A stretch of 64,000 nt of DNA from an uncultured Victivallales bacterium (GTDB taxonomy: Bacteria; Verrucomicrobiota; Kiritimatiellia; UBA8416), in NCBI GenBank assembly GCA_964497125.1, contig CAZCDU010000002.1, positions 105,695 to 169,694 on the forward strand, written 5' to 3'. Shown here piece by piece: positions 6,812 through 33,087 of this stretch (the first letter of the stretch is position 1; each line of letters opens with the position of its first letter). Under the pieces are notes generated by a model. The model did not search any database. It saw only the letters and a list, made by a program, of their open reading frames with translations, and was not told the DNA's origin. The translations under genes were made by a program, and so were the position numbers.

Positions 6812-6841
6812 GTTTGGCAAGATTGCCGCTTGTGTCGCGAA

Positions 6842-15859: not shown

Positions 15860-15902
15860 ACCTCTCCACCAAATCTCTCAGCACCCGACACAGCAAAACT
15901 CC

Positions 15903-16235
15903 GTGCCCCTGGCTGGTCCAGTCAGCCGCCCTCTTCTCCCCAAACCACCCAACGAAGGGCTGGGGTGCCCCTGGCTGGCCTAGTCGGTGCAGCCGTCCCC
16001 GGCAAACCAACTCCAGACAGCCACTCCTCTTTCTCCCCAAACCACCAGCGGAGGGCTGGGGTGCCCCTGGCTGGCCTAGTCGGTGCAGCCGTCCCCGGCA
16101 AACCAACTCCAGACAGCCACTCCTCTTTCTCCCCAAACCACCAGCGGAGGGCTGGGGTGCCCCTGGCTGGCCTAGTCGGTGCAGCCGTCCCCGGCAAAGC
16201 GACTCCAGACAGCCAGGGGCACCCCAGCCCGGAGC
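15903..16235. repeat. Nested-hairpin element (16144-16235) with 96-bp tandem partial copies between argJ and argB
   Basis: GGGCTGGGGTGCCCCTGGCTGGCCTAG recurs at 15957, 16053 and 16149 (period 96), with a decayed copy at 15903; only the last unit has the perfect 20-bp inverted arm (16210-16229). Confidence 0.9.
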
Positions 16236-16236
16236 G

Positions 16237-17448
16237 TCACGTCATGTACTCCGCATTAATCTTCACATAGTCATAACTGCAATCGCAGGTATAGACCGTA
16301 TCCGTCTCGCTCCCGAGCTTCAGATCGATCAGAATCTCGAATGCTGTCCTGGCAAAAACGGTTTCGAGCTCGGAGAACGCAACGCCTTCGGCCATTTGGC
16401 CTCCGATCACGGCGGCTACGTCATCAAACGAAATGTCCACGAGGTCGGCATCGACTTGTGCACCGGAGTAGCCAACGGCAGCAATGACCCGCCCCCAATT
16501 GGGGTCTCCACCGAACCACGCGGTCTTGCAAAGCAACGAATTCGCGACAGCCTTTGCCGCCTGATTGGCATCTGTCGCGGTGACGGCCCCTTGAACCGTC
16601 ACGGTAATAAAGCGAGTCGCGCCTTCGCCGTCCTTGACCATCATCGTCGCGAGGGCGAGCGCCACGTCGGCCACCGCGGCCTCGAACGTGCCCCACGCCG
16701 GATGCGATTCATCCAGAAGCGGTGTCTCGGATGCACCATTTGCGAACAACAGGACCGTGTCGTTGGTGCTCTGATCACCATCGACGGTCACCCGGTTAAA
16801 ACTCTTGGTCACGGCCTTCTTGAGACAGCTCTGCAGGGCCGTCAGTGAGACAGCGGCATCGGTTGTCAAAAAGGCCAGCATGGTAGCCATGTTCGGCTCG
16901 ATCATGCCGGCGCCCTTCGCCATACCACCGACATGCACCGTCTTGCCGTCCAGCTCAAAAGAAACAGCGTGCTGCTTGGCGACCGTGTCCGTCGTCATGA
17001 TGGCGTGCGCGGCTTCGCCACCGCCATGCGCTGAGAGTGCTTCGACGGCTACCGGTAATCCCGCCTTGATCTTACCCACGGGAAGCGGCTTGCCTATGGT
17101 GCCGGTTGAACACACAAAAATGGAGTCCGGCTCAATGCCCAGGGCAGCCGCGGTTGCAGCGGCCGTCTTCTCGGCAGCTTCCATCCCAGCCGCGCCCGTA
17201 CATGCATTCGCACAGCCGCTGTTAACCACAACCGACGATGCTGTTCCGGATGCCAACACACGCTTGCATAACTTCACGGGGGCCGCCTGGACCGCGTTGG
17301 TTGTGAACATGCCGGCAACCGTGGCGGGCGTTTCAGAAACCAACAGAGCCAAATCAAGCGCATTGGCCTTGATGCCGGCGCATACGCCGGAAGCCTTGAA
17401 GCCCTTCGGTGCAGTCACGCCACCGTCTGTAGTTACGAATTCACTCAT
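16237..17448 (-). CDS. argJ: Bifunctional ornithine acetyltransferase/N-acetylglutamate synthase
   Basis: GVTAPKGF, FTTN, VNSGCANA, STGTIG, IMTTDT, GMAKGAGMIEPNMATML, DGDQSTNDT, KDGEGAT, DPNWGR, CDCSYDYVKINAEY. Confidence 0.95.
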   Translation of the reverse strand: MSEFVTTDGGVTAPKGFKASGVCAGIKANALDLALLVSETPATVAGMFTTNAVQAAPVKLCKRVLASGTASSVVVNSGCANACTGAAGMEAAEKTAAATAAALGIEPDSIFVCSTGTIGKPLPVGKIKAGLPVAVEALSAHGGGEAAHAIMTTDTVAKQHAVSFELDGKTVHVGGMAKGAGMIEPNMATMLAFLTTDAAVSLTALQSCLKKAVTKSFNRVTVDGDQSTNDTVLLFANGASETPLLDESHPAWGTFEAAVADVALALATMMVKDGEGATRFITVTVQGAVTATDANQAAKAVANSLLCKTAWFGGDPNWGRVIAAVGYSGAQVDADLVDISFDDVAAVIGGQMAEGVAFSELETVFARTAFEILIDLKLGSETDTVYTCDCSYDYVKINAEYMT

Positions 17449-17582
17449 CTTTTCACTCCGATAAATTGGCTGCTGAATATCCAACATTCCCCAGGCAAAG
17501 TCGAATAGAAAAGGGGTACAGAAAAGGGACAAGAAACGCGAGGCCATGAGAACAGGGAATGCGGACGACGTGTCCGAGATGC

Positions 17583-19514
17583 TTAGCGTCGACGCGGTGG
17601 GCGGGAGCGCGAATCGCGACGACCACCACCGGAACGACCGCCTGAACGACCACCAGGTCGTCCCCCGGGACCCGAGCGGGGTGAACGCCTGTAAGGTTTG
17701 GCGTCCGTATGGGGAAGTGGCGTCAACAGCACGTCTTCCGGGTAGAGGCAGGATAGCTCTTCGCCGATATACTCTTCAATCTCCGGAATCGTAAAGGACT
17801 CGTCCTCGCAGGCAAACGAAACGGCCGTACCCTCGGCACCCGCTCTGCCAGTGCGACCAATGCGATGCACGTAGTCTTCTGCTTCGTACGGCAGATCGAA
17901 ATTCACGACATGATCAATGTCATCAACATGCAATCCCCGTCCCGCAACATCGGTAGCCACCACGGTCATCACCTTGCCGGACCTGAAGTCTTCCAGCACG
18001 CGCGTTCGGCGATTCTGGTTCACCGCACCTGAAAGCAGCTCACACTTGATGCCATAACGCTGTAGTTCGCCGGCAATTCGTTCTGTCTGGTCGCGGCGGT
18101 TGGCAAAGATCAGGACACGGCCGATATTCGGGCGCTTCAGAAGGTTGTACAGTACCGTGAACTTCTCGTTCGCCCGCACCATGTAGACAAGCTGCTTAAC
18201 CGTATCGACGGCCACCTGGTCAGGTTCGATCTCAACAACGTGCGGATCCGGCATCCACTGGGACGCCAAACGCATCACGGTATCAGTCAGCGTGGCGCTG
18301 AAAAGCAGTGTCCGGCGTTTATCTTTGGGCGGTGTACTGCGGATGATCGTGCGAACGTCGGGGATGAAGCCCATGTCGAGCATGCGGTCTGCCTCGTCAA
18401 TCACGAGCACTTCCACGCCGCGCAGGTCGATAATCCGTCTACGCTGGAAATCCAAAAGGCGCCCGGGTGTAGCGGCGACCAGATCAACCGGTCCACGCCG
18501 GAGATCGCGTTCCTGCTGCTCAAACCCGGTTCCGCCATAGACGGCCAAGCTGCGCATGGAGCAGTACTTCCCGATCTGCTCAGCATCTTTCATGATCTGA
18601 ATCACCAACTCACGTGTAGGTGCAATGACCAGGGCACGAGGACGGGCAGCCGGACGATCTGCCGGCAGAGGATTATCGAGAAACTGTTTGAACGTCAGCA
18701 GCAAAAATGCGGCGGTCTTCCCCGTACCGGTCTGAGCTTTGCCGGCCACGTTGTGACCCTCGGCAACTTCCTGCAGGACGCGGGCCTGAATAGGCGTGCA
18801 GTACTCGAATCCGAGATCCGCGATGGCATGCATGATCTCATCAGAAAGATCCACATCGTGAAAGCGTGTCTTCCCCTCGGCAGGCTCTACCTTATAGTCA
18901 TCAATCGACCATGGCTTCGCCGGCGGCTGTGACTCGCGTTGGTCGCCTTGCTGCTGAGGTCGTGGCTTTGCCGGCGGCTGCGACTCAGGTTGGTCGCCCT
19001 GCTGCTGAGGCTGTGGCTCCGCTGGCTGCTGCGATTCGGGTTGGTCGCCCTGCTGGGAGCGCGGCTTGCGACGGCGTCTTGGCCTTCGCTTGCGTGGAGC
19101 CTGCTCTTGCGTGCCATCATCCGTCTTGTCGGCTGAAGGCGAAGGCTTGGCGGGACGGGAGTCCGGTTCCGGGTCATCCCCCGGTTGCGAAAGCACCTGG
19201 GAATCATCTGCCGGTCGCGGTTTGCGCGGGCGACGTTTCCGTGGTGGACGCGTAGACTGTTCTGAACGACCCGACGATGATTTGCTTGATGACTTCCGCG
19301 GAGCCGGATTCTGTCCCGGGCGCCAAGTCTCGGTGTTGGGTCCATCCTTGGCCGCAACGGTAGTCTTGGCCTTCTGACCCGTCGATTTTCCGCCACGAGG
19401 GCGTGAATCGTTCTGCTTAGAGGGTGTCGAATCAGCCTTGGCAGGCCCGGAGCCCTTGCGAACCCGGGATGCCAGAGATTTGATAAGTCGAATTGCCATA
19501 ATCTGTATCTGCAA
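17583..19514 (-). CDS. rhlB: DEAD-box RNA helicase, RhlB-like, with long disordered N-terminus
   Basis: AQTGTGKT, PTREL, TPGRLLD, DEAD, FSAT, TDVAGRG, HRIGRTGRAG, SFACE; the ortholog call is moderate, the family call is firm. Confidence 0.8.
   Translation of the reverse strand: MQIQIMAIRLIKSLASRVRKGSGPAKADSTPSKQNDSRPRGGKSTGQKAKTTVAAKDGPNTETWRPGQNPAPRKSSSKSSSGRSEQSTRPPRKRRPRKPRPADDSQVLSQPGDDPEPDSRPAKPSPSADKTDDGTQEQAPRKRRPRRRRKPRSQQGDQPESQQPAEPQPQQQGDQPESQPPAKPRPQQQGDQRESQPPAKPWSIDDYKVEPAEGKTRFHDVDLSDEIMHAIADLGFEYCTPIQARVLQEVAEGHNVAGKAQTGTGKTAAFLLLTFKQFLDNPLPADRPAARPRALVIAPTRELVIQIMKDAEQIGKYCSMRSLAVYGGTGFEQQERDLRRGPVDLVAATPGRLLDFQRRRIIDLRGVEVLVIDEADRMLDMGFIPDVRTIIRSTPPKDKRRTLLFSATLTDTVMRLASQWMPDPHVVEIEPDQVAVDTVKQLVYMVRANEKFTVLYNLLKRPNIGRVLIFANRRDQTERIAGELQRYGIKCELLSGAVNQNRRTRVLEDFRSGKVMTVVATDVAGRGLHVDDIDHVVNFDLPYEAEDYVHRIGRTGRAGAEGTAVSFACEDESFTIPEIEEYIGEELSCLYPEDVLLTPLPHTDAKPYRRSPRSGPGGRPGGRSGGRSGGGRRDSRSRPPRRR
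18912..19056. repeat. 51-bp coding tandem repeat (~3 copies) in the helicase N-terminus
   Basis: Units start at 18912, 18963 and 19014; encode QQQGDQPESQPPAKPRP-like 17-mers. Confidence 0.85.
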
Positions 19515-19575
19515 GACGCAAACAGATCCCCGGCAACCGAAAGCTGCAAAAGCGGTCCGCGTGATGCTGGTCGCT

Positions 19576-19974
19576 TTAACGCTTGGAGAACTGGAAACGC
19601 TTGCGTGCGCCGGGCTGACCGGGTTTCTTCCGCTCTTTCATACGAGCGTCACGGGTCAGACAACCGCTGTTCTTCAACACCTCGCGCAGCGAGCTGTCGG
19701 CAACGGTTAGAGCACGAGCCAGGGCGTGACGCAGGGCGCCGGCCTGTCCAGCAATACCCCCGCCCTTGAGTGTGGCGGCGATATCGTACTTCTCTTGGGT
19801 GTTCGTTAGTTGCAGGGGCTGCACGATATACTGCAGCAGCGCTTCGCTGGGGAAGTATTCCTTAAGATCCCGCTTGTTTACCTTGCAGGCGCCTGACCCT
19901 TCGACCAATCGAACGCGGGCCACCGCCGTCTTCCGTCTTCCCGTAGCGCTAAACTCTTGAGCTTTGTCTGCCAC
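19576..19974 (-). CDS. rpsI: 30S ribosomal protein S9
   Basis: TGRRKTAVARV, GGGIAGQAGALRH, LTRDARMKERKKPG..ARKRFQFSKR. Confidence 0.98.
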   Translation of the reverse strand: MADKAQEFSATGRRKTAVARVRLVEGSGACKVNKRDLKEYFPSEALLQYIVQPLQLTNTQEKYDIAATLKGGGIAGQAGALRHALARALTVADSSLREVLKNSGCLTRDARMKERKKPGQPGARKRFQFSKR

Positions 19975-20010
19975 TGCCAGCTCCCTTAAACTATCCGTTT
20001 ATCGGATTAC

Positions 20011-20442
20011 TTATAGTGTGATTGTACTGGGGTTCTGCGCCTCATGCGGGTGCGTCTCGCCAGCGTATACTTTAAGTCGACGGAACATCTGCCTGCTTAG
20101 GTTATTCTTGGGCAGCATACCTTTCACAGCCGACTTAATAATTCGATCGGGATGCCGTTCACGCACCACCGAAGCTTTGACCTCTCTGTGCCCACCACGA
20201 TAACCCGTGTAGCGCGCATAGGTCTTCTTTTCGTCTTTGTTGCCGGTCAACTTAACTTTCTCGGCGTTGACAACAACAACAAAATCACCCGTATCTACGT
20301 GGTTTGAGAAGATGGGCTTCTCTTTGCCACGCAACACGTTTGCAATTTTCACACCCAACCGACCAACGGGCAATCCAGCCGCGTCAATCACATACCAGTT
20401 CCGGTCGGTTCCGGGATCTTTCGGCACAAATGTCTTCATCAC
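20011..20442 (-). CDS. rplM: 50S ribosomal protein L13
   Basis: WYVIDA, LRGKEKP, DTGDFVVVVNAEK, AVKGMLPKN, LKVYAGETHPHEAQ. Confidence 0.98.
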   Translation of the reverse strand: MMKTFVPKDPGTDRNWYVIDAAGLPVGRLGVKIANVLRGKEKPIFSNHVDTGDFVVVVNAEKVKLTGNKDEKKTYARYTGYRGGHREVKASVVRERHPDRIIKSAVKGMLPKNNLSRQMFRRLKVYAGETHPHEAQNPSTITL

Positions 20443-20472
20443 TTCTTTCCTTCGATAAAATCAGAACGGCGG

Positions 20473-20501
20473 ACACTACCCCAAGGCCATCAGGGTGTCA
20501 A
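20473..20501 (-). promoter_or_regulatory. Sigma70 promoter of rplM-rpsI
   Basis: Minus strand TTGACA-N17-TAGTGT. Confidence 0.8.
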
Positions 20502-20526
20502 CCCCCTTTTATGGCACTTTTTCGTG

Positions 20527-23007
20527 TTATTCGTTGGCCCCGTTCAAATCCCGACGCGCCTCGTTAATGAGACTGTCGATAATGCTCTCATGGATCTCCA
20601 TGTCGTCAACGTACTCTGAAGAGCTCGGTGAGGGCGGCGGCAGCGGGGCTGGTTCACGCCTTGGCGCGACCGGTTCGGACCGGATATCGGAGTGAGCTTC
20701 ACTCACCAACTCACCGACAACACCATCATCCAGCGGCATTGAATCGGTGTATCCACTGCCTTCTGCCATCGTGCTCCCCGACCACCCTGACTTCCACATG
20801 CCCCCGATATTCAAGGAATCCCGGCGGCGGCGTGTCTCCTCGGCCACCTCTTCAGGTGTATCCAGAACGTACGGCGTAATAAACACAATCGTCTCGGTTC
20901 GTCCTTTACTCCGGCTGTCTGAATTGAAGAGGCGACCCAGTAACGGAATATCCCCCAGGAGCGGAATCTTCGACCGGGAACGATTGTTCGTATCACGCAC
21001 CTGGCCACCCAACACAATGGTCTGCCCGCTCTGCACCGCAATAGAGGCCTCAATCGTTCGATCCTTGGAGATGACCTGTCCTGCCAGGTTGTCCGTCGTG
21101 CCGCTCTGATCGCCGGGCTGACTGATCTTCTGCGTAATCTCCATCATCACGACTTTGTTGTCATTGATGTGAGGCTTCACCGTCAACTCCAGGCCGATGT
21201 CCTCCTGACGGTAGCGGGCCGAGTTGTTGCCGGTGCTTCCACTCGTACTGTTGTAGTACGTTGTGCCCTCGAAAACGTATATCTTCTCGGTTGAGGCCAG
21301 TTTGGCCTCTGTATTGTCCGTTGTCAGCAGGGCCGGCGTCGAAACCACCTTCGTCCGGCTATCGCCTGCGCTCGCCTGGATGACGGCATTGATATTCAGG
21401 TCGAACATCGTGAAGAAGTACCCCAGGCCGGATGTTGCCAGGTCAGATGACGTGAGCCCTACCGCATCACGGGGGGCGCCGAGAGAACCGGTTTCACCGC
21501 CGCCTCCACCCGCAAAAGAGACAATGGGTGAACGCCGACCGGCTGCGTCCTTTCCGTAGGTCGTCAGTGATTTCTGAATCCAGCTAACCCCCGTATTCAG
21601 GGAGTCGCTGAGATCGACGTCGATGATGACGGCTTCTATCAGCACCTGCGAGAGCATCATGTCCATGTCATCGACGATCTCCAGTAGCGTTGTCAGGTCG
21701 CCTTTGCTTGCCATGATAATCAGTGCGTTCGTGCGCTCATCCGAGAGGATCTTAATATTGTCCTTTGATAGCTCACCTACACTCGATTTCTTGTCCGCAG
21801 CCGGCTGTGTGCTCTTAATACTGTCTACATAGTCGCGTAGAGCCTTCACATCGGAGTCACCGCCATCGGTGCTCTTGGGGGCAGCCGCAGGGGCATCGTC
21901 CTTGTCGGTAGCGCCGATCAGGTCATTCAGCATACCGGCGATTTCCTTCGCCTCGGCGAACTCCAGGCGCACCACCTTGACCATGACATCCGGGGATGTC
22001 TCGATATCAAGCACATCCACGATCATCTTGAAGAAGGTCATGTTTTCGGGACGTGTGATGATGATCAGTTTGTTTGTGCGTTCATCCGCCACGATCTTGA
22101 CGGTCCCGCGAATGATGCCGCGTTCGGCTTCTTCGATCAGGGCGGCCACCGGGGGGGCTGATTTCGATGGCGTAGGGGCTTTGCTGCGGGCACGAATGAC
22201 GCCGGGAACATTTCGGACGACACCTGGCGCACCGGAGCTCTTGGCTGCCGGCACGGTGGACTTCTGCTGTTCCTTCTGGGATTCAGCGATGATCTCTTCC
22301 AGTTTCTGTTTAATCTCTGACGCCTTCGCGTACCGGATCTGGATAATGCTGGGTTCTTCGCGAGCCTCAATCGGTTGGTCAATGAACCGCAGCACCTGGA
22401 GCATACGATTGATGTTGGCCGGAATATCGGTAACCAGGATTGAATTCGTGCGCTCAAACGCATTGATCGTGCCGTATTCGTGCCGCAACACATCCACGGC
22501 CTTGGTCGCTTCTGCGATATCAATGTGCTTAAGCACAATCATCTGGCTGATTAGTTCACCCGAGTCCTCGGGCAACACCCCCTCAGCCAACGACTCGCGG
22601 ATCGCCATCGGCTCACGACGCACATCCTTGATCGGCACCACGCGGATAAACTTGTCCCCAGACGCGACCAAGCCGATCCCATGCATACTCAGGACCGTTT
22701 CCACGGCACTGAGGTACTCATCAATGGCAAGATCGCCCTGGCTTCTCAGCGTAAAGGTCGGCGTCGGCAGCCCGGGAGCCCGTAACAGGGTCTTTCCGGT
22801 CTTCTCGCTGTAATCCTGTAATACAATATCAAGTGGTGTGCTACTGAACTTGAGGCGCAATCCCTCTTCAACAGCTCCACCACCGGTCGTAGCAGGCCGT
22901 GCCGGTATGCCCGGAATGCCCGGAACGCCCTGGGCCCACACCGAAGAGACAGCCACACACACAACCGCCTGAACCGCCAGAAGTCCCAAATAGCGTCTAA
23001 TCACCAT
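20527..23007 (-). CDS. gspD: Type II secretion system secretin
   Basis: Signal peptide; repeated secretin-N domains (ERTNSILVT, DERTNKLII, DERTNALII); QVLIEAVI; C-terminal KIPLLGDIPLLGRLF...ETIVFITP; alternative start at 23019. Confidence 0.93.
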   Translation of the reverse strand: MVIRRYLGLLAVQAVVCVAVSSVWAQGVPGIPGIPARPATTGGGAVEEGLRLKFSSTPLDIVLQDYSEKTGKTLLRAPGLPTPTFTLRSQGDLAIDEYLSAVETVLSMHGIGLVASGDKFIRVVPIKDVRREPMAIRESLAEGVLPEDSGELISQMIVLKHIDIAEATKAVDVLRHEYGTINAFERTNSILVTDIPANINRMLQVLRFIDQPIEAREEPSIIQIRYAKASEIKQKLEEIIAESQKEQQKSTVPAAKSSGAPGVVRNVPGVIRARSKAPTPSKSAPPVAALIEEAERGIIRGTVKIVADERTNKLIIITRPENMTFFKMIVDVLDIETSPDVMVKVVRLEFAEAKEIAGMLNDLIGATDKDDAPAAAPKSTDGGDSDVKALRDYVDSIKSTQPAADKKSSVGELSKDNIKILSDERTNALIIMASKGDLTTLLEIVDDMDMMLSQVLIEAVIIDVDLSDSLNTGVSWIQKSLTTYGKDAAGRRSPIVSFAGGGGGETGSLGAPRDAVGLTSSDLATSGLGYFFTMFDLNINAVIQASAGDSRTKVVSTPALLTTDNTEAKLASTEKIYVFEGTTYYNSTSGSTGNNSARYRQEDIGLELTVKPHINDNKVVMMEITQKISQPGDQSGTTDNLAGQVISKDRTIEASIAVQSGQTIVLGGQVRDTNNRSRSKIPLLGDIPLLGRLFNSDSRSKGRTETIVFITPYVLDTPEEVAEETRRRRDSLNIGGMWKSGWSGSTMAEGSGYTDSMPLDDGVVGELVSEAHSDIRSEPVAPRREPAPLPPPSPSSSEYVDDMEIHESIIDSLINEARRDLNGANE

Positions 23008-23169
23008 CACTAACTCCAACCATTCCCAAAACCATCAGCAAAGCAACAAGGCATCCCAACTACCCCAACAAACACCCACCGCATCCCCTCAAACAGACCG
23101 TCAGCGATAAGCAGGCCCCAGACAGCCAAAGACACCTATTCCCGTAGCCTCTCTTCCTTCAAACCTCAA

Positions 23170-23263
23170 GCGGAGGAATAGGGCATCCCTGGCTGGCCTA
23201 GCAGGTCGAGCGGCTTTGCCGCGAGAGCTGCTCCAGACAGCCAGGGATGCCCTATTCCGGAGC
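23170..23263. repeat. Nested-hairpin element overlapping the gspM stop codon
   Basis: GCGGAG-GAATAGGGCATCCCTGGCTG-GCCTAG...CTCCAG-A-CAGCCAGGGATGCCCTATTC-CGGAGC; perfect 20-bp arms; inner GCGGC-TTT-GCCGC hairpin. Confidence 0.9.
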
Positions 23264-23782
23264 ATCCCGCATATAAGCACAATAAAGCGAGAACCGCCCC
23301 GTTCGAACCACCTTATCCTTTGGCTTTACGCGCAAATATCGAATGTCAAGCATAGCACCTTCGCTTTGCAGATCAAATAGGAAATGAACCAGCGAATCGA
23401 GCGAACCCTCCCAATCCCGGCACTCGATAGGCAGCTCGTAAATGGGTCCTTCCTGTAGCTCTCCACTGACTTCATGACGCAGGATCTTGAGACCATGCTT
23501 GGTCGCTTTGCGCTCCATTTCCGTTGACCAATGGACATCCATACGTTTCCCCTGGGGAAAACGTGGCATCATGCCCTGGAGCTCACCCATTTTCGCATCC
23601 CATTTCTCACGTTGCCCGACCAACAGCTGACTGCGGGCTATAGAGCTGCGAACCTGCTCCTGCTGCTCCCGCACAGTTTTGAGATCCTCAATCTTCGAGC
23701 GTGCCAACAGTCCTGTCACGCCAAACAGAGCCACAGAAACTGTGGCCAGCGCCAATACGGATTCCCGTGTTGTTATCTTCAT
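23252..23782 (-). CDS. gspM: T2SS inner-membrane platform protein, GspM/PilO-like
   Basis: N-terminal TM helix, coiled coil, ferredoxin-like C-terminus (GSLDSLVHFLFDL); position between gspL and gspD. Confidence 0.7.
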   Translation of the reverse strand: MKITTRESVLALATVSVALFGVTGLLARSKIEDLKTVREQQEQVRSSIARSQLLVGQREKWDAKMGELQGMMPRFPQGKRMDVHWSTEMERKATKHGLKILRHEVSGELQEGPIYELPIECRDWEGSLDSLVHFLFDLQSEGAMLDIRYLRVKPKDKVVRTGRFSLYCAYMRDAPE

Positions 23783-25131
23783 GGCGTCGCCTCCGGGAAG
23801 CTGATATCAAAACCGAAACGATGCCTGCCTTTACGCGTGAGCGTTCGAGTCCCCGGCTTCACGTCCGCGAATAGTTTCGATTGGTTCAGCTTTTCGTTAA
23901 ACTCATTCACGAGTGGCCCGCTATCCGCTTCGCCATCCAGATCCAGTCCCTCTCCCTTCCGGTAGGTGAAGGACGTCAGGTCCAAACCTTGAGGTTGCAG
24001 AGCGCTGATCTCCCGCAGACATTCCAGGGCGGAGTGGGTACGATCGGTATAGCGCTCAATCATATCTACCTGGAGCCGCAGCCGGCGCACTTCGTTCGCC
24101 GGCTCCATCCAGCGGACCTCATCTTCTTCCAGCTTCACCAGGCGTGCCTCTTCGACTGCGAGCCAACCCAGTCCACCACCGACGAATAGAGCCCAGACCC
24201 CAAGCACGCATAGGGCCGTGACCACCATCTGACGCCGTGTCCGTTTCGAGGTAGCGGCGAGCCGCCATGGCGCCGGGGTCAGATCCAGCAGACCATCCCC
24301 TGACAGTTCCCGCAGGGCGACACCACGTTCCGTCGAAGGCAGAATCCCCAGCGACCGCTCGCCCACACTGCTCTTGCAGGCTATCTGTAGTGACGTCGCA
24401 AACGAAGCCAGCGGCTCATCCGACCAAAGCGTGATCGCCTGGCCCTCTTCGTGGCGACCGTTCTCGATCTCAAAGCCCAACAGCAGGTGTGCGACCTCCC
24501 GGGCAATATCGTTAGCCGTTGCCACGTCCTCAAGATCCGGAGTCCGGCCGAGACAACTCAACCCAACGGGAATTCCACCTTCGTGCGTCAGCACCTCGAG
24601 CGTGCCATCGCTGACAATCACCAGGGTTTCTCTGCCAGAAGTCGCCAATTGGCCGGTTTCAACAATGCTGTTCCAGCGTCCCAGGAGGGCCACGTCCACG
24701 CGTCCGATTTTCACCCCCTGCGCCTTCAGCACATCAGCGGCTTCGTCGATAGCCGCCTCCTTGGCGGCCGCCACCAGCACGGTACATGATTGATCATCCC
24801 GGGAGAGCACCTCGTGTGACACGACCATCTGATCAATAGGGAATGGAGAGTACTTGTCGACCTGGAGCTCCACCATATCGGAAAGCTCGTCATCATCGAC
24901 GGCGGGAAACTCGAGAACACGCAACAGAAGCTGGTTTGTGGGCAAAGCAAGAACGGCGGGAGACTTGATATCGACGAGCTGGTTCATCTCGACCGAAGGC
25001 TCTTCGTCCTCTTCAGGTCGCTCCACGCGTCCCTCTGAGACACAGTCGGGCGCGCCCTTGGCCTGCCGCAGCGTTGCCCACGCCACCGCCTCAGACGTCA
25101 CCAGAATCCCAGTTGCCAAATCCTTCGCCAT
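23779..25131 (-). CDS. gspL: T2SS GspL-like protein (PilM-like cytoplasmic part plus PilN-like periplasmic part)
   Basis: LLRVLEFP..DDDELSDMVELQVDKYSPF, VLVAA, single TM helix, C-terminal PilN-like domain; operon position. Confidence 0.75.
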   Translation of the reverse strand: MAKDLATGILVTSEAVAWATLRQAKGAPDCVSEGRVERPEEDEEPSVEMNQLVDIKSPAVLALPTNQLLLRVLEFPAVDDDELSDMVELQVDKYSPFPIDQMVVSHEVLSRDDQSCTVLVAAAKEAAIDEAADVLKAQGVKIGRVDVALLGRWNSIVETGQLATSGRETLVIVSDGTLEVLTHEGGIPVGLSCLGRTPDLEDVATANDIAREVAHLLLGFEIENGRHEEGQAITLWSDEPLASFATSLQIACKSSVGERSLGILPSTERGVALRELSGDGLLDLTPAPWRLAATSKRTRRQMVVTALCVLGVWALFVGGGLGWLAVEEARLVKLEEDEVRWMEPANEVRRLRLQVDMIERYTDRTHSALECLREISALQPQGLDLTSFTYRKGEGLDLDGEADSGPLVNEFNEKLNQSKLFADVKPGTRTLTRKGRHRFGFDISFPEATP

Positions 25132-25164
25132 CAATCGTCCTTATGCAGCCCCAGTATCAACAGA

Positions 25165-25188
25165 CTGAATTCTAACGAATCCAGCTAC
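25165..25188 (-). repeat. GTAG-tagged REP, family 1
   Basis: Minus strand GTAG-CTGGATTC-GTTA-GAATTCAG. Confidence 0.9.
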
Positions 25189-25204
25189 CTATTCATCCCT
25201 GCCC

Positions 25205-25408
25205 CCAAAACCACCAGCGGAGGCATCGACACGCCATCTACCCTCTCTCACAAACCGCCAGCGGAGGGCTGGGGTGGCCCTGGCTACCCAAGCCAGCACA
25301 GCCCGCGCATTCTCCCCAAAAACACCGCCAGCGGAGGCGTTGGGTGTCCCTCGCAGGCCTAGTGGCTTCCCAGCCACTCCAGCCAAGAGGGACACCCAAC
25401 GCCGGAGC
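25205..25408. repeat. Nested-hairpin element (25331-25408) plus two decayed upstream units
   Basis: GCGGAG-GCGTTGGGTGTCCCTC...GCCTAG-TGGCTTCCCAGCCA-CTCCAG...GAGGGACACCCAACGC-CGGAGC; CCAGCGGAGG recurs three times; lies 2 nt after the gspK stop. Confidence 0.88.
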
Positions 25409-25410
25409 GC

Positions 25411-26595
25411 CTAGTCATCTTCCCGCCACCTCACGATGGTCAATTTCTTGCTTTCGTAGCGCACAATACACCACAACGTCCGCGGGACACCATTAATTTC
25501 GCCCGTCGAGGTAATACGATAGATCTGGGACGATGTGGATACCAAATCCTTCACGCGGCCATCCAACTCCGGAATCCGGGACGTAAAATCCCCTACATCC
25601 TTGAATGACTCATCGTGAGACACCCCGGATTCATCGGTCCACCCGCGCCGCTCCTCCTCGATCAATTCAACGATATTCTCATCCACACCGGGCAGGGCCA
25701 TGAGCACACGGCGAGATGCGGCATTCACGTTCACTTTGCCGTCACCATAGGTTGTCAGCATATCTCCCATGCCCGAACAACGAAGTGTATCGTCCTCAAA
25801 CATCCCTTCGTGCAAAACCCCGCCATCCAACATCTCGCGTGTAAATCCCTTGATCAGCAGCAATTCACCAACTGTATCCAACGGCCCGTTGCGAGCCATG
25901 TACGGCTCATCGAGACTTCCGTAGTAGTCGGTTTCCGCACCGTCAGCGCGAGGCGCATCATCCTCATCGGTCCAGTCATAGAAGGCCTCTATCAACTCAG
26001 ACCACATCTCCACCGGAATACCGGCGACTTCAAAAATGCCTTCCCAGATAAGATCGCTTGTCTCGCCCTGCTTGGCCGTGAGTGTATTAACATTCAGGCG
26101 TGCCGGCTCCGGCGTGATCTTAACGGTGATCGTCCCCTCCCCCAGATCTTCCTCCGCAAGGTCATGCTCAATCACGACTTCGACGCCATCGGCAAGACTC
26201 TGGGCATGCGCGTGCCATTTATCGGTCGCCGCCTTGGCTTCGTCCAGCTCCCCGCCGGCCGTCAGCCCTTCCGACTTGCTCATCAGGAGTTCCGCGATGG
26301 CCAGGCCTGAACGCGCAAGGTAGTCCGCCTTGGTACGGTTGCGGTAGTACGACGTCAGGCGCGCTTCAATGTGGGCTTCAAAAGCAAAGGAAGCCACAAG
26401 CATCCCCAGCAACCCAATCACCCATAGCGACACAATCAGAGCTGATCCCCCAGATGCGTTTCGCTTGCGTGTCTGAATTCTCACGAATCCAGCCACAGTG
26501 CTATCTGTGTAGCTGGATCCGTTAGGATTCAGATCTCTATCCGCCCAGCTCCCGCAACCGAACCACGAACGTCGAAATCTGGCCCCTATTTCCAT
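25411..26595 (-). CDS. gspK: T2SS minor pseudopilin K
   Basis: GG|SALIVSLWVI leader, ARLNVN, DWTDEDD, YMARNGPLDTVGELLLIKG, GKVNVNAAS..VL.ALPG; start uncertain (ATG 26595 or GTG inside the REP). Confidence 0.9.
   Translation of the reverse strand: MEIGARFRRSWFGCGSWADRDLNPNGSSYTDSTVAGFVRIQTRKRNASGGSALIVSLWVIGLLGMLVASFAFEAHIEARLTSYYRNRTKADYLARSGLAIAELLMSKSEGLTAGGELDEAKAATDKWHAHAQSLADGVEVVIEHDLAEEDLGEGTITVKITPEPARLNVNTLTAKQGETSDLIWEGIFEVAGIPVEMWSELIEAFYDWTDEDDAPRADGAETDYYGSLDEPYMARNGPLDTVGELLLIKGFTREMLDGGVLHEGMFEDDTLRCSGMGDMLTTYGDGKVNVNAASRRVLMALPGVDENIVELIEEERRGWTDESGVSHDESFKDVGDFTSRIPELDGRVKDLVSTSSQIYRITSTGEINGVPRTLWCIVRYESKKLTIVRWREDD
26473..26532. repeat. Inverted doublet of family-1 REPs inside the gspK 5' region
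   Basis: GTGG-CTGGATTCGTGAGAATTCAG (26473-26496, minus) and GTAG-CTGGATCCGTTAGGATTCAG (26509-26532, plus), 12-bp spacer. Confidence 0.9.
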
Positions 26596-27278
26596 GCCAG
26601 CTCCCCGACACGAAGGCCTATCACCCGTTTCATTTCAACCGGATCATCCCCTTCAACAATAGGCTCCACATAAAGCGAGACCTCAACGATGGTTGGAATT
26701 TTGTTGGTTTCCTCCCATTCATCCAGCCAGTCAATCTCGCCGTCTTCATCCAGCTGCCACGCCGTCCGGCAATTGAACCCGACGACGCGTTTGGAAAGAA
26801 ACATGGGATCGAGTTCATCCGGATCAAAATCTTCCGGCTGTCCCTGCAGCCGCCAGGCAACCACGGCGGCCGCGGAATCGCCATCTTCGTCATCTTCCAG
26901 GAGGAAGCGAACCCGGTGCGGCGTCTCGGCAAACGAGCTATCGCGGCCCACGAGAGCGCCACCCAACTTCACCCAGCAGATCTCATCCTCTGCATTCTCG
27001 CCCTCGCCGTTGTCCTCATGCCAGAAACCATACTCGGGAGCACCTGCCCCTTTCGTCCCATCAGGATAGTACGCCGACCGCAATCCCATCACCAACTGCT
27101 GAATCACATAATCGCCATGGTGCAGGTTATCAGCCAGGGTTGTTCCCCGCTGCCAGGCCGAGGTAGCCGCCGAAAACGTCATGAACGTCACCGTGGAGAC
27201 GAGCGACAGAATCGTGACGGCAAACAGAATCTCCAACAGCGTGAAGCCGATGGCCCCTGTTCTTCCCCCCCTCTTCAT
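26586..27278 (-). CDS. gspJ: T2SS minor pseudopilin J
   Basis: Prepilin site G|FTLLEILFAV; operon order. Confidence 0.8.
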   Translation of the reverse strand: MKRGGRTGAIGFTLLEILFAVTILSLVSTVTFMTFSAATSAWQRGTTLADNLHHGDYVIQQLVMGLRSAYYPDGTKGAGAPEYGFWHEDNGEGENAEDEICWVKLGGALVGRDSSFAETPHRVRFLLEDDEDGDSAAAVVAWRLQGQPEDFDPDELDPMFLSKRVVGFNCRTAWQLDEDGEIDWLDEWEETNKIPTIVEVSLYVEPIVEGDDPVEMKRVIGLRVGELAWK

Positions 27279-27313
27279 CTGAAACCCGAACCCCGACACC
27301 TGAACCCCGCTTC
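27279..27313. repeat. Heptamer tandem repeat between gspI and gspJ
   Basis: CTGAAAC CCGAACC CCGACAC CTGAACC CCGCTTC. Confidence 0.6.
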
Positions 27314-27314
27314 C

Positions 27315-27719
27315 TTACTCCCGGTACAACCAGTACCGCATCACTTCCTCGCTGTTCTCCTTGCCGCGATCCGCCCAGGCGACCCGCGTCTTGATAACCA
27401 GCAGACGAACTTCACTGTCCTCATCCGACTCATAGGGATCGTCAACCGTTCGCTCATACGAGAAGCCACCAAAATCTTCTGCACTGACCTCGAAATCGTC
27501 CGGATCCATGTCGTCGTCTTTCTCGGTCCGAATCATCGGGAATTCGGCATGGCCGGCACTCAGCGCCCAAAGCGCGTCGTGATAACCGGTCGAGACCTTC
27601 AATACACGCAGACAGCGGGAGATTGCCGTCAGCATTACCACCATCCCCAGGCTGAGGATCGTAACCGCCAACAACACCTCAATCAGCGTCAAGCCGCGCT
27701 TTCTGATGGCTCTGCTCAC
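27315..27719 (-). CDS. gspI: T2SS minor pseudopilin I
   Basis: RG|LTLIEVLLAV prepilin site; 134 aa; operon order. Confidence 0.8.
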   Translation of the reverse strand: MSRAIRKRGLTLIEVLLAVTILSLGMVVMLTAISRCLRVLKVSTGYHDALWALSAGHAEFPMIRTEKDDDMDPDDFEVSAEDFGGFSYERTVDDPYESDEDSEVRLLVIKTRVAWADRGKENSEEVMRYWLYRE

Positions 27720-28351
27720 TCGCCGTCTCCCACGGTCATGGCCGATGCCAACGCATCAACCTTAATCAAAACGCCCACGTCTTCATCATCCACCAGTCGC
27801 ACCTTGTAAGGCATACAGCGCCCGTTCGACTGGTAAACAACCGCGCAGGATTCCCCCGTACTCCGGTCTCCCCCCTCGACCTCCACGTAGGCAATCTTCA
27901 CCCGGTCCAAGGCTCGCTCCAGTGTATCGTCGACGCCCACGGCGGCGGGGGCATCACGCTCATCCGCTTTGGTGGTGAGCGTATCCATCAGGAGAGACGG
28001 CTGCTCGTCCGCATCGTCCCCCTCCTCCAGCTCCTCATCGCCTTCGGGTTTGGACGGTTTAATGTGACGAACCGAGAGCGTCCCGGCCTCGAGATCAAAT
28101 GTGATCGTCATCGGGCGCTGGTGCAGCACGGCCATGCTACGTGCATAGCGACCAGCCGCAATAACGGTTCGTGCCGCCGTGCGCCGACGATTGCCCTTCA
28201 TGGACTTCACGAACGATGGCACGGCGATCGCCGTCACCACCCCAATAATCACCAGCACCAGCAGTAGTTCAATCAGGGTGAAACCAGCGCGAGCACGACA
28301 GGCGCCAGGGGATGATGGCATCCCCCCCGGGACATAAGACCTATGAGGCAT
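27716..28351 (-). CDS. gspH: T2SS minor pseudopilin H
   Basis: AG|FTLIELLLVLVIIG prepilin site; RYARSMAV; operon order. Confidence 0.8.
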   Translation of the reverse strand: MPHRSYVPGGMPSSPGACRARAGFTLIELLLVLVIIGVVTAIAVPSFVKSMKGNRRRTAARTVIAAGRYARSMAVLHQRPMTITFDLEAGTLSVRHIKPSKPEGDEELEEGDDADEQPSLLMDTLTTKADERDAPAAVGVDDTLERALDRVKIAYVEVEGGDRSTGESCAVVYQSNGRCMPYKVRLVDDEDVGVLIKVDALASAMTVGDGE

Positions 28352-28362
28352 ATGAGTCCTGT

Positions 28363-28779
28363 TCAGAAGCTCGTAATATCGTCGCCTGAGCCCTGCTGCA
28401 GATCGGGACCCGCCGATGAAATCTTATAGCCGCTCTCGCTGGAGGCCTTGTAGGAAAAAGCCGTGCCCCAGGCATCGACCAGGGACTCCTTGCCCCCACG
28501 AAGGTATGGGCCACTCCAATTCGGCTCTCCCGAGCTCGTCAGAAGATTGTCCAATGATGAAGGATACCGGCCCGTATCGAGCTGATAGATATCCACCTGT
28601 GTCGCAATGGCTGCGATACTGGCACGCGTCGCTTTGATGCGAGCCTTCTCACCATGCTGGCCAAAATTACCAACGACTACCGCCGCCAGAATCCCAAGGA
28701 TCGCCACCACCAGCAACACTTCGATCAACGTAAAACCCGCTGCCCCATGCGCCCCACGCTCACTCCGTCTTTCACTCAT
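28363..28779 (-). CDS. gspG: T2SS major pseudopilin G
   Basis: AG|FTLIEVLLVV; YQLDTGRYPSSL..L; NWSGPYL; DAWG; SAGPD...GSGDDI. Confidence 0.93.
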   Translation of the reverse strand: MSERRSERGAHGAAGFTLIEVLLVVAILGILAAVVVGNFGQHGEKARIKATRASIAAIATQVDIYQLDTGRYPSSLDNLLTSSGEPNWSGPYLRGGKESLVDAWGTAFSYKASSESGYKISSAGPDLQQGSGDDITSF

Positions 28780-28871
28780 ATTGACCTCCCTGCTATTTCA
28801 GGCTCCGTTCCACACTCCACTCACCATCAAAAACAATATCCTGCCCCACCAGAGACCCAGCGTCCCTAAGA

Positions 28872-28895
28872 CTGAATTCTAACGAATCCAGCTAC
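28872..28895 (-). repeat. GTAG-tagged REP, family 1
   Basis: Minus strand GTAG-CTGGATTC-GTTA-GAATTCAG, identical to the 25165 copy. Confidence 0.9.
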
Positions 28896-28904
28896 CCCAT
28901 TGTC

Positions 28905-29262
28905 TCCCCAAACCGCCAGCCGCAGACCAACCCTCTCTGCCCCACAAACCGCCAGCCCCAGAGCAACCCTCTCTCTCCCCACAAACCACCAGCGGAGGGC
29001 TGGGGTGCCCTTGCCTAGCCTAGTCGCTGCAGCCGTCCCCACAAACCGCCAGCGGAGGCATTGGGTGCCCCTCGCAGGCCTAGTGGCTTCCCAACCACTC
29101 CAGCTCTTCCTCCAAACACCACCAGCGGAGGGCTGGGGTGTCCCTGGCTGGCCTAGTCGGTGCAGCCGTCCCCACAAACCGCCAGCGGAGGCGTTGGGTG
29201 CCCCTCGCAGGCCTAGTGGCTTCCCAGCCACTCCAGCCAAGAGGGGCACCCAACGCCGGAGC
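28905..29262. repeat. Mosaic tandem array of nested-hairpin element units between gspF and gspG
   Basis: Six units starting with a CAAACC(A/G)CCAGC-like linker; bodies alternate between the argJ-type and gspK-type; complete element at 29185-29262, 1 nt after the gspF stop. Confidence 0.88.
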
Positions 29263-29263
29263 G

Positions 29264-30493
29264 TCACCCCATGCCGTTCGTAAGATTAAACACCGCCATC
29301 AAAATACTAACCGCCACAAAACCAACCGCCAGCGCCACAAAGACAATCAGAATAGGCTCAAGCGCCGTCGTAAAGATCTTAACATTCCGGTCCAGGTCAT
29401 TCTCGTATCGCCGGGCAATGTGGGTCAGCGATCCCACCATATCGCCCGTCTGTTCACCGATCGACAGCATATCGGTCATCATCGTAGGAAAGACCTTGCC
29501 TGCCGCCAGGGGCCCCGAAATCGATGTCCCGTCGGTCACCCGTTCACGGGCATTATCCAGCTCGCGCGCGATCACGGCATTTCCTACCGTCTGGGCCACG
29601 ATCTGCAGAGCCCGAAGCACGGGAACCCCGTTACCTAGTAGTGTACCAAGTGTTCGCGCAAAATTGGCATAAATTCCCGATGCCACAATGCCGCGAATCA
29701 GCGGCATTTTCAGCAGCACACGATGCCACCAGAGCTGGCCACGTTTGGTCTGCACACCACGGTGAGCCAACACGGCCAGGATTCCCATGGCGACGAGGAC
29801 AAGCAATCCGTATTTCGTGAGAAATCCGCTGATCCCAATCAGAATTCGTGTGGGCAACGGTAAGGTCTGATTCATCTGCGCGAAGATACGCTCAAATTTG
29901 GGGACCACGTTCACCATGGAGAATATCAGCGTGGCCGCGCCCATAACCATCACGATCATCGGATAGACAAGGGCCATCACGACCTTCTCTTTCAGGTCCT
30001 GGACCCGCTCATAGTGCTCCACTAATCGCTTGAGCACTTCATGCAGCGCGCCACTCGCTTCACCGGCACGGATCATATTGACGTAGAGATTCGAAAAGAT
30101 CTTCGGGTGCCGTTGCAGAGCGTCCGAGAGACTCGCACCCCGTACGATCTCATCACGAAGCGACCCAATAATCGAGTCGCTTCCTTTGCCCGAGCGTCTG
30201 TTGGCAAGGGTGTTGAGTGCATTACCAAGGGTCATGCCTGATGCCAGCAGATCGCTTAGCTCCGTGGTAAAGACGAGGACCTCGCGCATGCTCATGCGAT
30301 CGGGGCGAGTCATCTGGAATCGCTTTGTAGATGCGCCCGAAGGTTTTGCTGCCGCAACGCCCTCCTTGACCGACACGGGAATCAGCCCCTGCCGCTCAAT
30401 GCCCGCCAGGGCCTCACGGCGATCCTTGGCATCCAGTTCCCCGGCAACCTTCTCGCCTGCCTTGGTCCGTGCGCTATATGTAAATGTAGGCAT
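29264..30493 (-). CDS. gspF: T2SS inner-membrane platform protein F
   Basis: LSDLLASG, GASLSDAL, YVNMIRAGEASGAL, YP, LGTLLGNGVPVLRAL, MLSIGEQTG, LEPILI. Confidence 0.95.
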   Translation of the reverse strand: MPTFTYSARTKAGEKVAGELDAKDRREALAGIERQGLIPVSVKEGVAAAKPSGASTKRFQMTRPDRMSMREVLVFTTELSDLLASGMTLGNALNTLANRRSGKGSDSIIGSLRDEIVRGASLSDALQRHPKIFSNLYVNMIRAGEASGALHEVLKRLVEHYERVQDLKEKVVMALVYPMIVMVMGAATLIFSMVNVVPKFERIFAQMNQTLPLPTRILIGISGFLTKYGLLVLVAMGILAVLAHRGVQTKRGQLWWHRVLLKMPLIRGIVASGIYANFARTLGTLLGNGVPVLRALQIVAQTVGNAVIARELDNARERVTDGTSISGPLAAGKVFPTMMTDMLSIGEQTGDMVGSLTHIARRYENDLDRNVKIFTTALEPILIVFVALAVGFVAVSILMAVFNLTNGMG

Positions 30494-30537
30494 GACCTTT
30501 ACTCACTCCCGGAACCACCCACCGGGGACCGGAACAA

Positions 30538-32235: not shown

Positions 32236-32320
32236 GTTCGTAGACTCCTATGCCCTTATAAGGCTACCGTCCAACGCCAGAATAGCAATGCTGAATGAGT
32301 CGCCTGCCAAATCGGCCTCC

Positions 32321-32344
32321 GTAGCTGGATTCGTGAGAATTCAG
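32321..32344 (+). repeat. GTAG-tagged REP, family 1, overlapping the trmJ stop
   Basis: GTAG-CTGGATTC-GTGA-GAATTCAG; its reverse complement contains the TGA stop at 32341-32343. Confidence 0.9.
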
Positions 32345-33087
32345 TCCCCGCATTCAGATTCGTCAGCATTCAGATTATCAACGGCCCACTCGGTTTGCCG
32401 TACAATCCCCATCATGATGCGAACATCGTCCTCCGTTTCCGCCCCACGCCCCATGATCCGACGAAAGCCCTGCATCATGTGGTCTGCCTTGTCGTCTTCC
32501 ATGAACCCGATACGCAGGAGAAGATCACGCCACATCGTGAACATGCGTTCCCGCAAGACAGAGGGCGCGAGCTCAGACTTCTCAACCGGTGGCTCGTAGA
32601 TGTCAGCGGCAACGAAGATCTCGTAGCAGCATACCATCACCGCCTGGGACAGATTCAGAGAGGTGTAGGATTCCGACGTCGGAATCTGGATAATCCGGGA
32701 ACAGATCGCCAGCTCTTCGTTCGACAGTCCTTTGTCTTCGCGCCCGAACACGAGCGCCACCTTGCCCCGCGAGGTGTCCGATAGCACCGGCAGTGCCCAC
32801 TCACGTGGTGTTTTGGCGTGTTGGCGGTAGAGTCCCGTCCGCGCCGAGGTGCCCATGATGACACCACAATCCTGTACCGCCTCCGCCAGGGATTCGTGCG
32901 TCGAGCGCGAATCGAGAATGTCGGTTGCGTGACACGCCATCATGCGGGCCTCGTCCATATTCAGCCGCCGCTCAGACACAATGGCCAGATCCGAGAGCCC
33001 CGTATTGGCCATTGCGCGACATACCGAACCAACATTGCCTCCATACAGTGGTCCTACCAGTACAATGCGTATATTATCCAGATTCAT
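32341..33087 (-). CDS. trmJ: SPOUT tRNA/rRNA methyltransferase, TrmJ/LasT family
   Basis: IRIVLV.P..GGNVGSVCRAM.N.GL, LVFGREDKGLSNEEL, SLNLSQAV, E..DVRIMMGI. Confidence 0.85.
   Translation of the reverse strand: MNLDNIRIVLVGPLYGGNVGSVCRAMANTGLSDLAIVSERRLNMDEARMMACHATDILDSRSTHESLAEAVQDCGVIMGTSARTGLYRQHAKTPREWALPVLSDTSRGKVALVFGREDKGLSNEELAICSRIIQIPTSESYTSLNLSQAVMVCCYEIFVAADIYEPPVEKSELAPSVLRERMFTMWRDLLLRIGFMEDDKADHMMQGFRRIMGRGAETEDDVRIMMGIVRQTEWAVDNLNADESECGD

Follow-up and report, generated by a model that had tools for sequence, protein, structure and literature searches.

Four genes in a 64-kb stretch of DNA from an uncultured Victivallales bacterium (positions 105,695 to 169,694 of contig CAZCDU010000002.1, the whole of which is referred to here as the window) carry long nested hairpins at their stop codons, raising the question of whether these hairpins are mobile DNA or RNA structures that serve the operons in which they lie. 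A sequence-only reading of the window had left two explanations standing, a non-autonomous element mobilised by an HUH (RAYT-type) transposase and a structured RNA acting at translation termination or mRNA processing. The nested hairpins are a previously undescribed family of small palindromic interspersed DNA repeats, which, by analogy, appears to behave like REP (repetitive extragenic palindromic)/REPIN, MITE (a miniature transposable element with inverted repeats) or MIRU repeats and not like a dedicated regulatory RNA. The best reading, to which a probability of about 0.7 may be given, is that of a non-autonomous mobile DNA element that is recognised in its folded state by an enzyme and filtered by selection to gene ends.

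The shared scaffold GCGGAG-arm-GCCTAG-inner hairpin-CTCCAG-arm'-CGGAGC is present on the + strand, as first described, in all four complete copies at the positions given in Table 1. The pattern GCGGAG..GCCTAG..CTCCAG has six matches in the window, all on the + strand, and none in 100 dinucleotide-preserving shuffles. Folding gave every copy a perfect outer helix of 17–21 bp plus an inner hairpin, with energies between -58 and -72 kcal/mol and, relative to shuffles, z-scores between -5.5 and -8.8 on either strand, confirming that arms that differ between copies nevertheless pair with their own partners. The two closest copies (copies 3 and 4) differ at only two positions, which together form the compensatory T-A to C-G pair already pointed out in the earlier description. 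Counted from the stop codon to GCTCCGG, the gaps behind argJ, gspK and gspF are 1, 2 and 1 nt. The gspM-like open reading frame (ORF) runs into its copy and terminates at a TAG inside the 5' arm, 12 nt within the element, an arrangement also present in three relatives (L030, L032 and L034); the reported placement, with three copies just past a stop and one overlapping it, is thus correct. All four hosts are encoded on the - strand of a gene block comprising gspE-F-G-H-I-J-K-L-M-D, rplM-rpsI, a DEAD-box helicase gene and argJ-B-D-G, so the common orientation relative to transcription that had been claimed is uninformative within the window; at related loci it stands as a strong, non-absolute bias.

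On the gene strand, the 5' part of the element consists of a stop triplet, 0–1 nt, CGCTCCGG, a variable arm of 15–17 nt, CT(C)TTGGCTGGAG and the inner hairpin, and the 3' part of CTAGGCC-TGCGAG, the complementary arm, CCTCCGCTGG and the tail (T)GGAG-T(3-7)-G. The hairpin core measures about 80–95 bp, or about 100–120 bp counting the 3' tail. The conserved boxes outside the arms (box1 and box4) and beside the inner hairpin (box2 and box3) are short, and conserved boxes oppose each other as partly unpaired loops (GC-UCC-GG versus CC-UCC-GC). The termini of the element, CGCTCC... and ...GGAGTTTTG or ...GGAGTG, have only a CTCC/GGAG core in common, the long inverted repeats being internal and copy-specific. 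The arms follow the pattern NNNN-GGG-NNN-CCC-TC and are much more diverse than the inner hairpins, the window's own species contributing ten or more variants by itself, with extra variants on one common inner hairpin in metagenome contigs, where the depth of the element is 3–10x that of its flanks. The inner hairpins are lineage-specific, in a small number of types shared by the copies of a genome. The 5 nt ahead of GCTCCGG are GTGAC in five copies and GTAGC in three, the others being GTAAC, GTGGC, TAGGC, AAGGC, AGAGC, AGGGC, AGTGT and GGGAT.

Three other delimitations of the element were rejected. The tail GGAGTTTTG is not a degenerate end of argJ, as the same tail follows copies at unrelated loci of 45% GC genomes; the conserved ATG two codons ahead of the stop is not part of the element, as element-free ArgJ homologues also end in YMT; and the arms showed no similarity to flanking target sequence from which they might derive.

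A covariance model built from 11 copies gives all true copies scores of 56–110 bits and has no other match in the window, whose remaining sequence amounts to 50 kb. Related loci, which are genome fragments (marine metagenome contigs and metagenome-assembled genomes, MAGs), extend the family well beyond one species: 31 complete copies were recovered at E<1e-8 in 20 sources, plus three in L046. When species-representative genomes were scanned for the pattern, true copies turned up in two MAGs labelled 'uncultured Victivallales' and one labelled 'Kiritimatiellia', and a metagenome scan added copies from organisms of 45% and 57% GC. The source genomes span 45–60% GC, and the carriers are marine bacteria of the Planctomycetota-Verrucomicrobiota-Chlamydiota (PVC) group, with MAG labels of Victivallales, Kiritimatiellia or Verrucomicrobia. 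Viral contigs contained 10 chance pattern matches, none of them matched by the covariance model. The density of complete copies reaches five in 21 kb (L046), compared with four in the 64 kb of the window. Rfam returned no match at gathering thresholds across the window and, in E-value mode, only weak likeness to generic miRNA-precursor hairpins far under threshold; no earlier description for Lentisphaerota or Kiritimatiellota was found in the literature searched. The impression that the element belongs to no named family therefore holds.

Mobility is indicated by a comparison of orthologous junctions for empty sites, which the sequence-only reading had recommended. Syntenic loci of relatives were gathered through homologues of ArgJ and GspF with 85–68% protein identity. 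The argJ-argB junction is filled in the window, in L034 and L036 and in the 45% GC genomes L020, L021 and L024. In L030 it contains a remnant of 57 nt, and L032 (with the stop/start overlap TAATG), L035 and L037 have a cleanly empty site. The gspK-gspL and gspM-gspD junctions are filled in the window, L030, L032 and L034 and empty in L035 and L036. Additional copies lie behind spoU, gspE and argG in L046, and the lineage of L035 and L047, a close relative, has no copy in 37 kb and none at six junctions. Empty alleles, where available, are stop/start overlaps (TAATG or TGATG), and filled alleles at argJ-argB and gspE-gspF have a stop triplet on both sides (TGA...TGATG, TGA...TAATG or TAG...TAATG).

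Orthologous copies also decay, with model scores of 102.7, 88, 64 and 57 bits at gspK-gspL and of 101.9, 88, 56 and 20 bits at argJ-argB. Nearly identical copies occupy neighbouring junctions of one genome (gspK-gspL and gspF-gspG in the window; gspE-gspF and gspF-gspG in L046), and copies at the same junction in different genomes bear the inner-hairpin type of their own genome, both of which point to turnover or conversion within genomes. A copy with perfect arms in L011 is flanked by a perfect 15-bp direct repeat, or 21 bp with one mismatch, and is evidently young. Filled, empty and remnant junctions, duplication of the stop triplet, near-identical copies and the tandem, nested and decayed copies described below all support the first of the two original proposals, that of a non-autonomous mobile element.

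The tabulation of stop distance and orientation proposed in the sequence-only reading gave a pattern with exceptions. Thirteen of 17 independent sites (orthologues collapsed) fall between -12 and +4 nt relative to the stop of an upstream ORF in the same orientation, and the remainder include antisense, divergent intergenic and intragenic copies. The only antisense copy is that of L011 (region 1545-1745), whose tail abuts the stop of an AraC-type regulator gene; the 15-bp direct repeat contains the last codons and the stop of this gene, and a gene for a 182-aa resolvase-family protein (serine recombinase; 969-1517) lies just downstream of the copy. The L012 copy is situated between divergent rpoN and metallo-beta-lactamase-fold genes. 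The L013 copy (6639-6737) lies in frame within a P-type cation ATPase gene (ORF 5195-7987, - strand), with the E1-E2_ATPase domain upstream of it and the Hydrolase and Cation_ATPase_C domains downstream, and has the head GTGGC, in which TGG replaces the stop so that the ORF reads through. In L018 (region 8600-9330) a copy begins 4 nt past the CCA end of a tRNA-Arg(tct) gene, with two partial copies behind it; about 210 nt downstream, 19 nt of the T-arm region of this tRNA are imperfectly repeated, which is reminiscent of att-site duplication.

The gspM, spoU and argG ORFs run into the element and stop at a TAG within the arm, and at several filled junctions its tail sets a GGAG about 7 nt ahead of the downstream ATG. 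We infer that selection within tightly coupled operons accounts for much of the stop-anchored, sense-oriented pattern. The element probably also has an intrinsic preference for gene ends as targets, because the 1-nt spacing recurs at unrelated loci.

The structure is clearly maintained. In the alignment of 31 copies, 96.6% of cells are in standard pairs, compared with 76.1% in column shuffles and 34–51% when partners are slid by 1–3 columns, and in 15 of the 17 arm pairs both partners have changed, bearing out the earlier statement that structure is conserved without conservation of sequence. Strong covariation is also what could be expected of a host-selected structured RNA in the operon mRNAs, giving protection of the upstream cistron from 3' exonucleases, processing by RNase III or another enzyme, or termination and re-initiation, and spread by duplication. 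Such an RNA would fit the sense orientation and stop adjacency at 13 of the 17 independent sites, the occupation of gspK-gspL and gspM-gspD in four genomes and of argJ-argB in genomes 73% identical in ArgJ, the GGAG ahead of the downstream ATG in several filled alleles, and the retention from 45 to 60% GC of boxes containing CUCC and GGAG.

The mismatches within the arms, however, are strand-symmetric. In a selected RNA helix, G·U is tolerated on the transcribed strand and A·C is avoided. In the arms, G·U occurs 12 times, A·C 11 times and other (transversion) mismatches 10 times, with 14 of the 31 copies perfect; the equal numbers of G·U and A·C are the pattern of a decaying DNA palindrome, not of a selected RNA helix. 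Orthologues moreover decay, gain insertions in the apical loop, shrink or vanish, the close relative is empty at six junctions, and copies in antisense, in a divergent promoter region and in frame within a gene, as well as arrays of partial copies, are difficult to reconcile with a role in mRNA. Compensated differences are common among close relatives (copies 3 and 4 of the window, L021 versus L024, and the TTGGGGGTGTCCC group), which indicates that pairing is enforced in lineages that go on being copied. REPIN hairpins show a like pattern of common compensatory changes and tandem clusters (PMC3116915).

Searches for RNA signals were likewise negative, with neither an Rfam match nor a terminator signature. 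A terminator scan reported no complete copy, and its total for the window equals the number in shuffles. A canonical intrinsic terminator was rejected on this ground and because the U tract does not fall within 0–2 nt of the hairpin: about 10 nt separate the helix from the U-rich tail, which in the copies of the window contains only 3 U. A scan for sigma-70 promoters gave no signal above shuffles, and the RNA runs examined did not contain the locus. A structured RNA at termination or in mRNA processing, the second of the original proposals, is consequently improbable as the primary nature of the element.

Under the mobile-element reading, a mobilising enzyme would recognise the folded single-stranded hairpin by its shape and by its small conserved asymmetric loops, in a RAYT/IS200-type or attC-type manner, the loops read being UCC/UCC at the base and the GGAG and CUAG boxes near the top. 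Only well-paired 'master' copies would replicate, producing the covariation, and in tight operons only inserts that keep the upstream stop and provide a GGAG about 7 nt before the ATG would survive, leaving the stop-anchored sense pattern. The 3'-partial arrays could come from successive insertions at the duplicated stop triplet together with unequal recombination between GCTGGAG-like direct repeats (box2 and box4/tail). Copies would be transcribed passively in operon mRNAs, with any effect on them, such as mRNA stabilisation or RNase III cutting, being secondary. A bolder version, rather unlikely as it stands, is that the element may be the substrate of a structure-specific single-strand DNA recombinase or transposase that would recognise the shape of the hairpin and its small asymmetric loops, much as IntI reads attC, and would aim at gene 3' ends (stop/start overlaps, a tRNA end). 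It would then be an 'operon-compatible' insert, with a stop-adjacent head and a Shine-Dalgarno tail, able to colonise, and perhaps co-opted to punctuate, coupled operons such as those for type II secretion and arginine in PVC bacteria.

Several observations weigh against mobility. Target duplication is uneven, with 3 bp at two junctions, 15–21 bp in L011 and most sites not above the cross-locus null; long target duplication as a general rule was rejected, only L011 and marginally L018 exceeding that null. Four metagenome runs contained no insertion or excision polymorphism, only repeat-to-repeat cross-joins. The filled argJ-argB alleles may share one ancestral insertion and so may not be independent evidence, and the persistent occupancy of identical junctions over about 20–27% protein divergence, together with the strong sense orientation, could reflect a host function. 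Pfam and NCBIfam scans of 40 ORFs in the 64 kb of the window found no transposase or recombinase, and no Y1 transposase or integrase was found in the Pfam-annotated related loci.

An attC-like folded single-strand site for a tyrosine or serine recombinase, recognised by structure and not by sequence, with asymmetric loops to mark the strand and the stop-proximal 'insertions' as products of site-specific recombination, would account for variable arms on a conserved structure, for conserved asymmetric internal loops, for the place directly behind ORF stops, and for the copies at a tRNA 3' end with an imperfect tRNA-end repeat downstream (L018) and within a 15-bp flanking repeat beside a resolvase-family gene (L011). 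It is nevertheless very unlikely, as the R''/R' core sites (RYYYAAC/GTTRRRY) are absent from the alignment, the flanks are core operon genes (arg, type II secretion) in conserved synteny and not cassettes, the window has no integrase gene and the resolvase association is a single case.

Also very unlikely is that only the inner module (box2-inner hairpin-box3) is mobile and inserts into the loops of existing gene-end hairpins, which would account for one inner hairpin on many arms. The identical inner hairpin A sits on unrelated arms (argJ copy of the window, L004, L011 and loose contig ends), orthologous argJ copies with similar arms carry different inner hairpins (window, L034 and L036), and further apical-loop insertions occur. 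In all copies, however, the boxes outside the arms equal the inner boxes in conservation, empty sites have no pre-existing hairpin, the genes simply overlapping at TGATG or TAATG, and whole units including the arms have been duplicated between junctions. The further insertions are palindromes of 35–60 nt in the apical loop of inner hairpins of type A (L034 2111-2256 and L030 14754-14917), and look like nested insertions into an exposed loop.

Every complete copy opens a tandem array on the gene (-) strand in which partial copies follow it, a feature overlooked in the sequence-only reading. The two further pattern matches in the window, at 16048 and 29052, belong to such arrays. Partial members keep box2-inner hairpin-box3-3' arm-box4-tail and lack box1 and the stop-proximal 5' arm. 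The array behind gspF contains a 133-nt A+B unit twice (28971-29103 and 29104-29236) and two degenerate 36-nt units (28906-28977). Second copies within arrays are preceded by TGA or TAG even though no ORF ends there, which fits repeated insertion at a duplicated triplet.

At 100% identity to ENA scaffold L038, the window is itself a metagenome scaffold built from short reads, and other assemblies break past the gspF stop, so the copy numbers in the arrays are uncertain. Independent short-read assemblies of the same organism (L039-L045) end about 15–130 nt past that stop, and a MAG contig, L006, joins a different gene directly past the gspK copy (3796-3830). The element thus leads to broken contigs and probably to chimeric joins. 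In three runs there are contigs in which 15711 is joined to 16237 and 525 nt, with the whole argJ array and the argB start, are left out; this join, whose shorter side is only 23 nt, either reflects a minor variant or is spurious. That the element itself is a metagenome assembly artefact, as the short-read scaffold, the breaks and the L006 join might suggest, is next to impossible, since complete copies recur across independent assemblies, samples and species with different arms and doubt is confined to the number of copies in the arrays. L006 (99.8% identical) and Logan contigs of four runs contain the complete copies again, along with large parts of the arrays.

The REP/RAYT (Y1 HUH) system, for which a study by Nunvar in 2010 is reportedly a source, is one of several known systems that the element resembles. 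REP and REPIN elements are mobilised by RAYT (Y1 HUH) transposases (Bertels & Rainey 2011, PMC3116915; Di Nocera 2013, PMC3733652); REP termini can supply TAG stops and lie close to the 3' ends of genes, and intragenic copies have been reported in the PVC bacterium Opitutus terrae (PMC3733652). The present family shares with them small, extragenic, G+C-rich palindromes with long hairpins, compensatory changes and tandem clusters, a position near the 3' end of the upstream ORF, possibly a GTAG-type head able to supply a stop, occasional intragenic copies and a co-resident classical GTAG REP family in the window. It differs in that a single long hairpin (palindrome of 78–95 nt) encloses an inner one, where REPINs are doublets of 20–40 nt REPs. 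Its short asymmetric boxes are conserved and its arms vary and are no REP palindromes, whereas REPIN ends are invariant. Its 5-nt head (GTGAC, GTAGC, TAGGC and others) seems to belong to the target and not to the element, being part of the duplication in L011, and no RAYT gene was found in the window or in the Pfam-annotated related loci.

MITEs (Correia/NEMIS, ERIC, RUP, Nezha) resemble the element in size (about 80–120 bp), in being non-coding, with inverted-repeat arms and intergenic positions within transcription units, and in apparent target duplication and nested and truncated copies. Here, in contrast, the inverted repeats are subterminal and copy-specific and not conserved transposase-binding termini, the length of the duplication appears not to be fixed and no parent insertion sequence with the same ends was found. 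MIRUs insert at start codons with a coupled ORF, and coupling is preserved (PMC12548453). As sense-oriented direct tandem repeats in operons at stop/start junctions, with translation of the neighbours preserved, they are close to the element in placement (PMC12548453), and the T(G/A)ATG junction is kept at the element's 3' end. MIRUs are not long perfect palindromes, however, and carry a small coupled ORF, of a kind not demonstrated in the element.

Integron attC sites share the location directly behind an ORF stop, a conserved fold, a variable stem and asymmetric unpaired bases, but the element is without R''/R' core sites, integrase gene and cassette array and is flanked by syntenic housekeeping genes. 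The ends of IS200/IS605 elements and their miniature derivatives (PATEs) are similar in orientation bias and in that recognition of a folded single-strand hairpin is plausible. Their two subterminal hairpins differ from each other, their insertion duplicates no target sequence and takes place 3' of a fixed tetra- or pentanucleotide, unlike that of the present element with its single large hairpin and duplicated stop triplet. By comparison, then, the element seems to work like REP/REPIN, MITE and MIRU repeats and to be a member of no one of them. Its variable arms, lack of conserved termini and apparently of a fixed duplication, and perfect palindrome keep it from being filed in any one group.

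Table 1. Repeat features of the window (positions are those of the window; bits are covariance-model scores)
Feature	Position	Strand	Details
Copy 1, arm type A, inner hairpin type A	16144..16235	-	-71.3 kcal/mol, z -5.5; 101.9 bits; argJ stop TGA, 16237-16239
Copy 2, arm type C, inner hairpin type C	23170..23263	-	z -7.1; 86.6 bits; gspM-like stop TAG, 23252-23254
Copy 3, arm type B, inner hairpin type B	25331..25408	-	102.7 bits; gspK stop TAG, 25411-25413; recurs in MAG contig L006 and Logan contigs
Copy 4, arm type B, inner hairpin type B	29185..29262	-	106.5 bits; gspF stop TGA, 29264-29266
argJ array, three 96-nt units	15896..16143	-	ends at TGATG = argB start; repeat families D1, D2, D10, D11; 27.3 and 20.7 bits
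Tail and degenerate 5'-partial copy behind copy 2	23104..23169	-	repeat family D5
Partial/degenerate copies behind copy 3	25190..25330	-	box4 motifs 25214, 25258; type A arm 25261-25302; 24.6 and 12.9 bits
gspF array, alternating type A/type B partial copies	28897..29184	-	repeat families D3, D19; pattern match at 29052
Possible internally deleted remnant, gspE/gspF (low confidence)	30494..30537	-	TAG-T-GTTCCGG...GGGAGTGAG-TAA; compared with filled L046 allele and empty TGATG L047 allele
GTAG-headed REP copy (GTAGCTGGATTCGTTAGAATTCAG), distal close of gspK array	25162..25189	-	repeat family D6
GTAG-headed REP, identical copy, distal close of gspF array	28869..28896	-	repeat family D6
Other GTAG-headed REP copies	26470-26497, 26508-26537, 32320-32349, 42640-42667, 42675-42704		
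Further GTAG-headed REP copies	59913-59942, 59958-59985, 60559-60588		

The possible remnant between gspE and gspF gave no covariance-model match. The second repeat family of the window is a classical GTAG-headed REP (GTAGCTGGATYCGTKAGRATTCAG), which in part forms REPIN-like inverted doublets, head-to-head at 26470/26508 and 42640/42675 and tail-to-tail at 59913/59958, and at which contig depth is about 7–8x that of the flanks. Its presence suggests that the genome may encode a RAYT. The doublet at 26470-26537 lies within the predicted N-terminal region of gspK (ORF 25411-26595, codons ~20-42) and would represent either an in-frame intragenic insertion or a sign that the true start codon is downstream; the predicted GspK has 394 aa, compared with 342–389 aa in relatives.

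Other features of the region include three tandem 51-nt repeats (73–86% identical; 18912-19064) in the N-terminal extension of the DEAD-box (RhlB/RhlE-like) helicase gene, and an ORF of 2094 aa (50509-56793, - strand) with no Pfam match at E<1e-5, which is adjoined by an ORF with an HNH endonuclease domain (49772-50320). A gene with a 23S_rRNA_IVP/bAvd domain lies downstream of the ribonucleotide reductase gene in a relative (L032 20234-20611 and L033 12731-13108) and is missing at the corresponding place in the window; bAvd is the accessory protein type of diversity-generating retroelements.

These results add a repeat family to the poorly studied marine PVC lineages and explain why short-read assemblies break exactly at certain gene ends. 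In annotation, the covariance model can be used to mask the elements and to mend the ends of ORFs that run into them (gspM, spoU, argG and the P-type ATPase gene). The family also shows that strong covariation alone is no proof of RNA function, as evolution in which structure is conserved and sequence is free can take place at the level of DNA. Discovery of the mobilising enzyme would make the fixed asymmetric boxes and free arms a defined system in which to study the structure-specific recognition of folded single-stranded DNA. The combination of a stop-adjacent head and a Shine-Dalgarno tail suggests how selfish DNA can live in translationally coupled operons with little harm.

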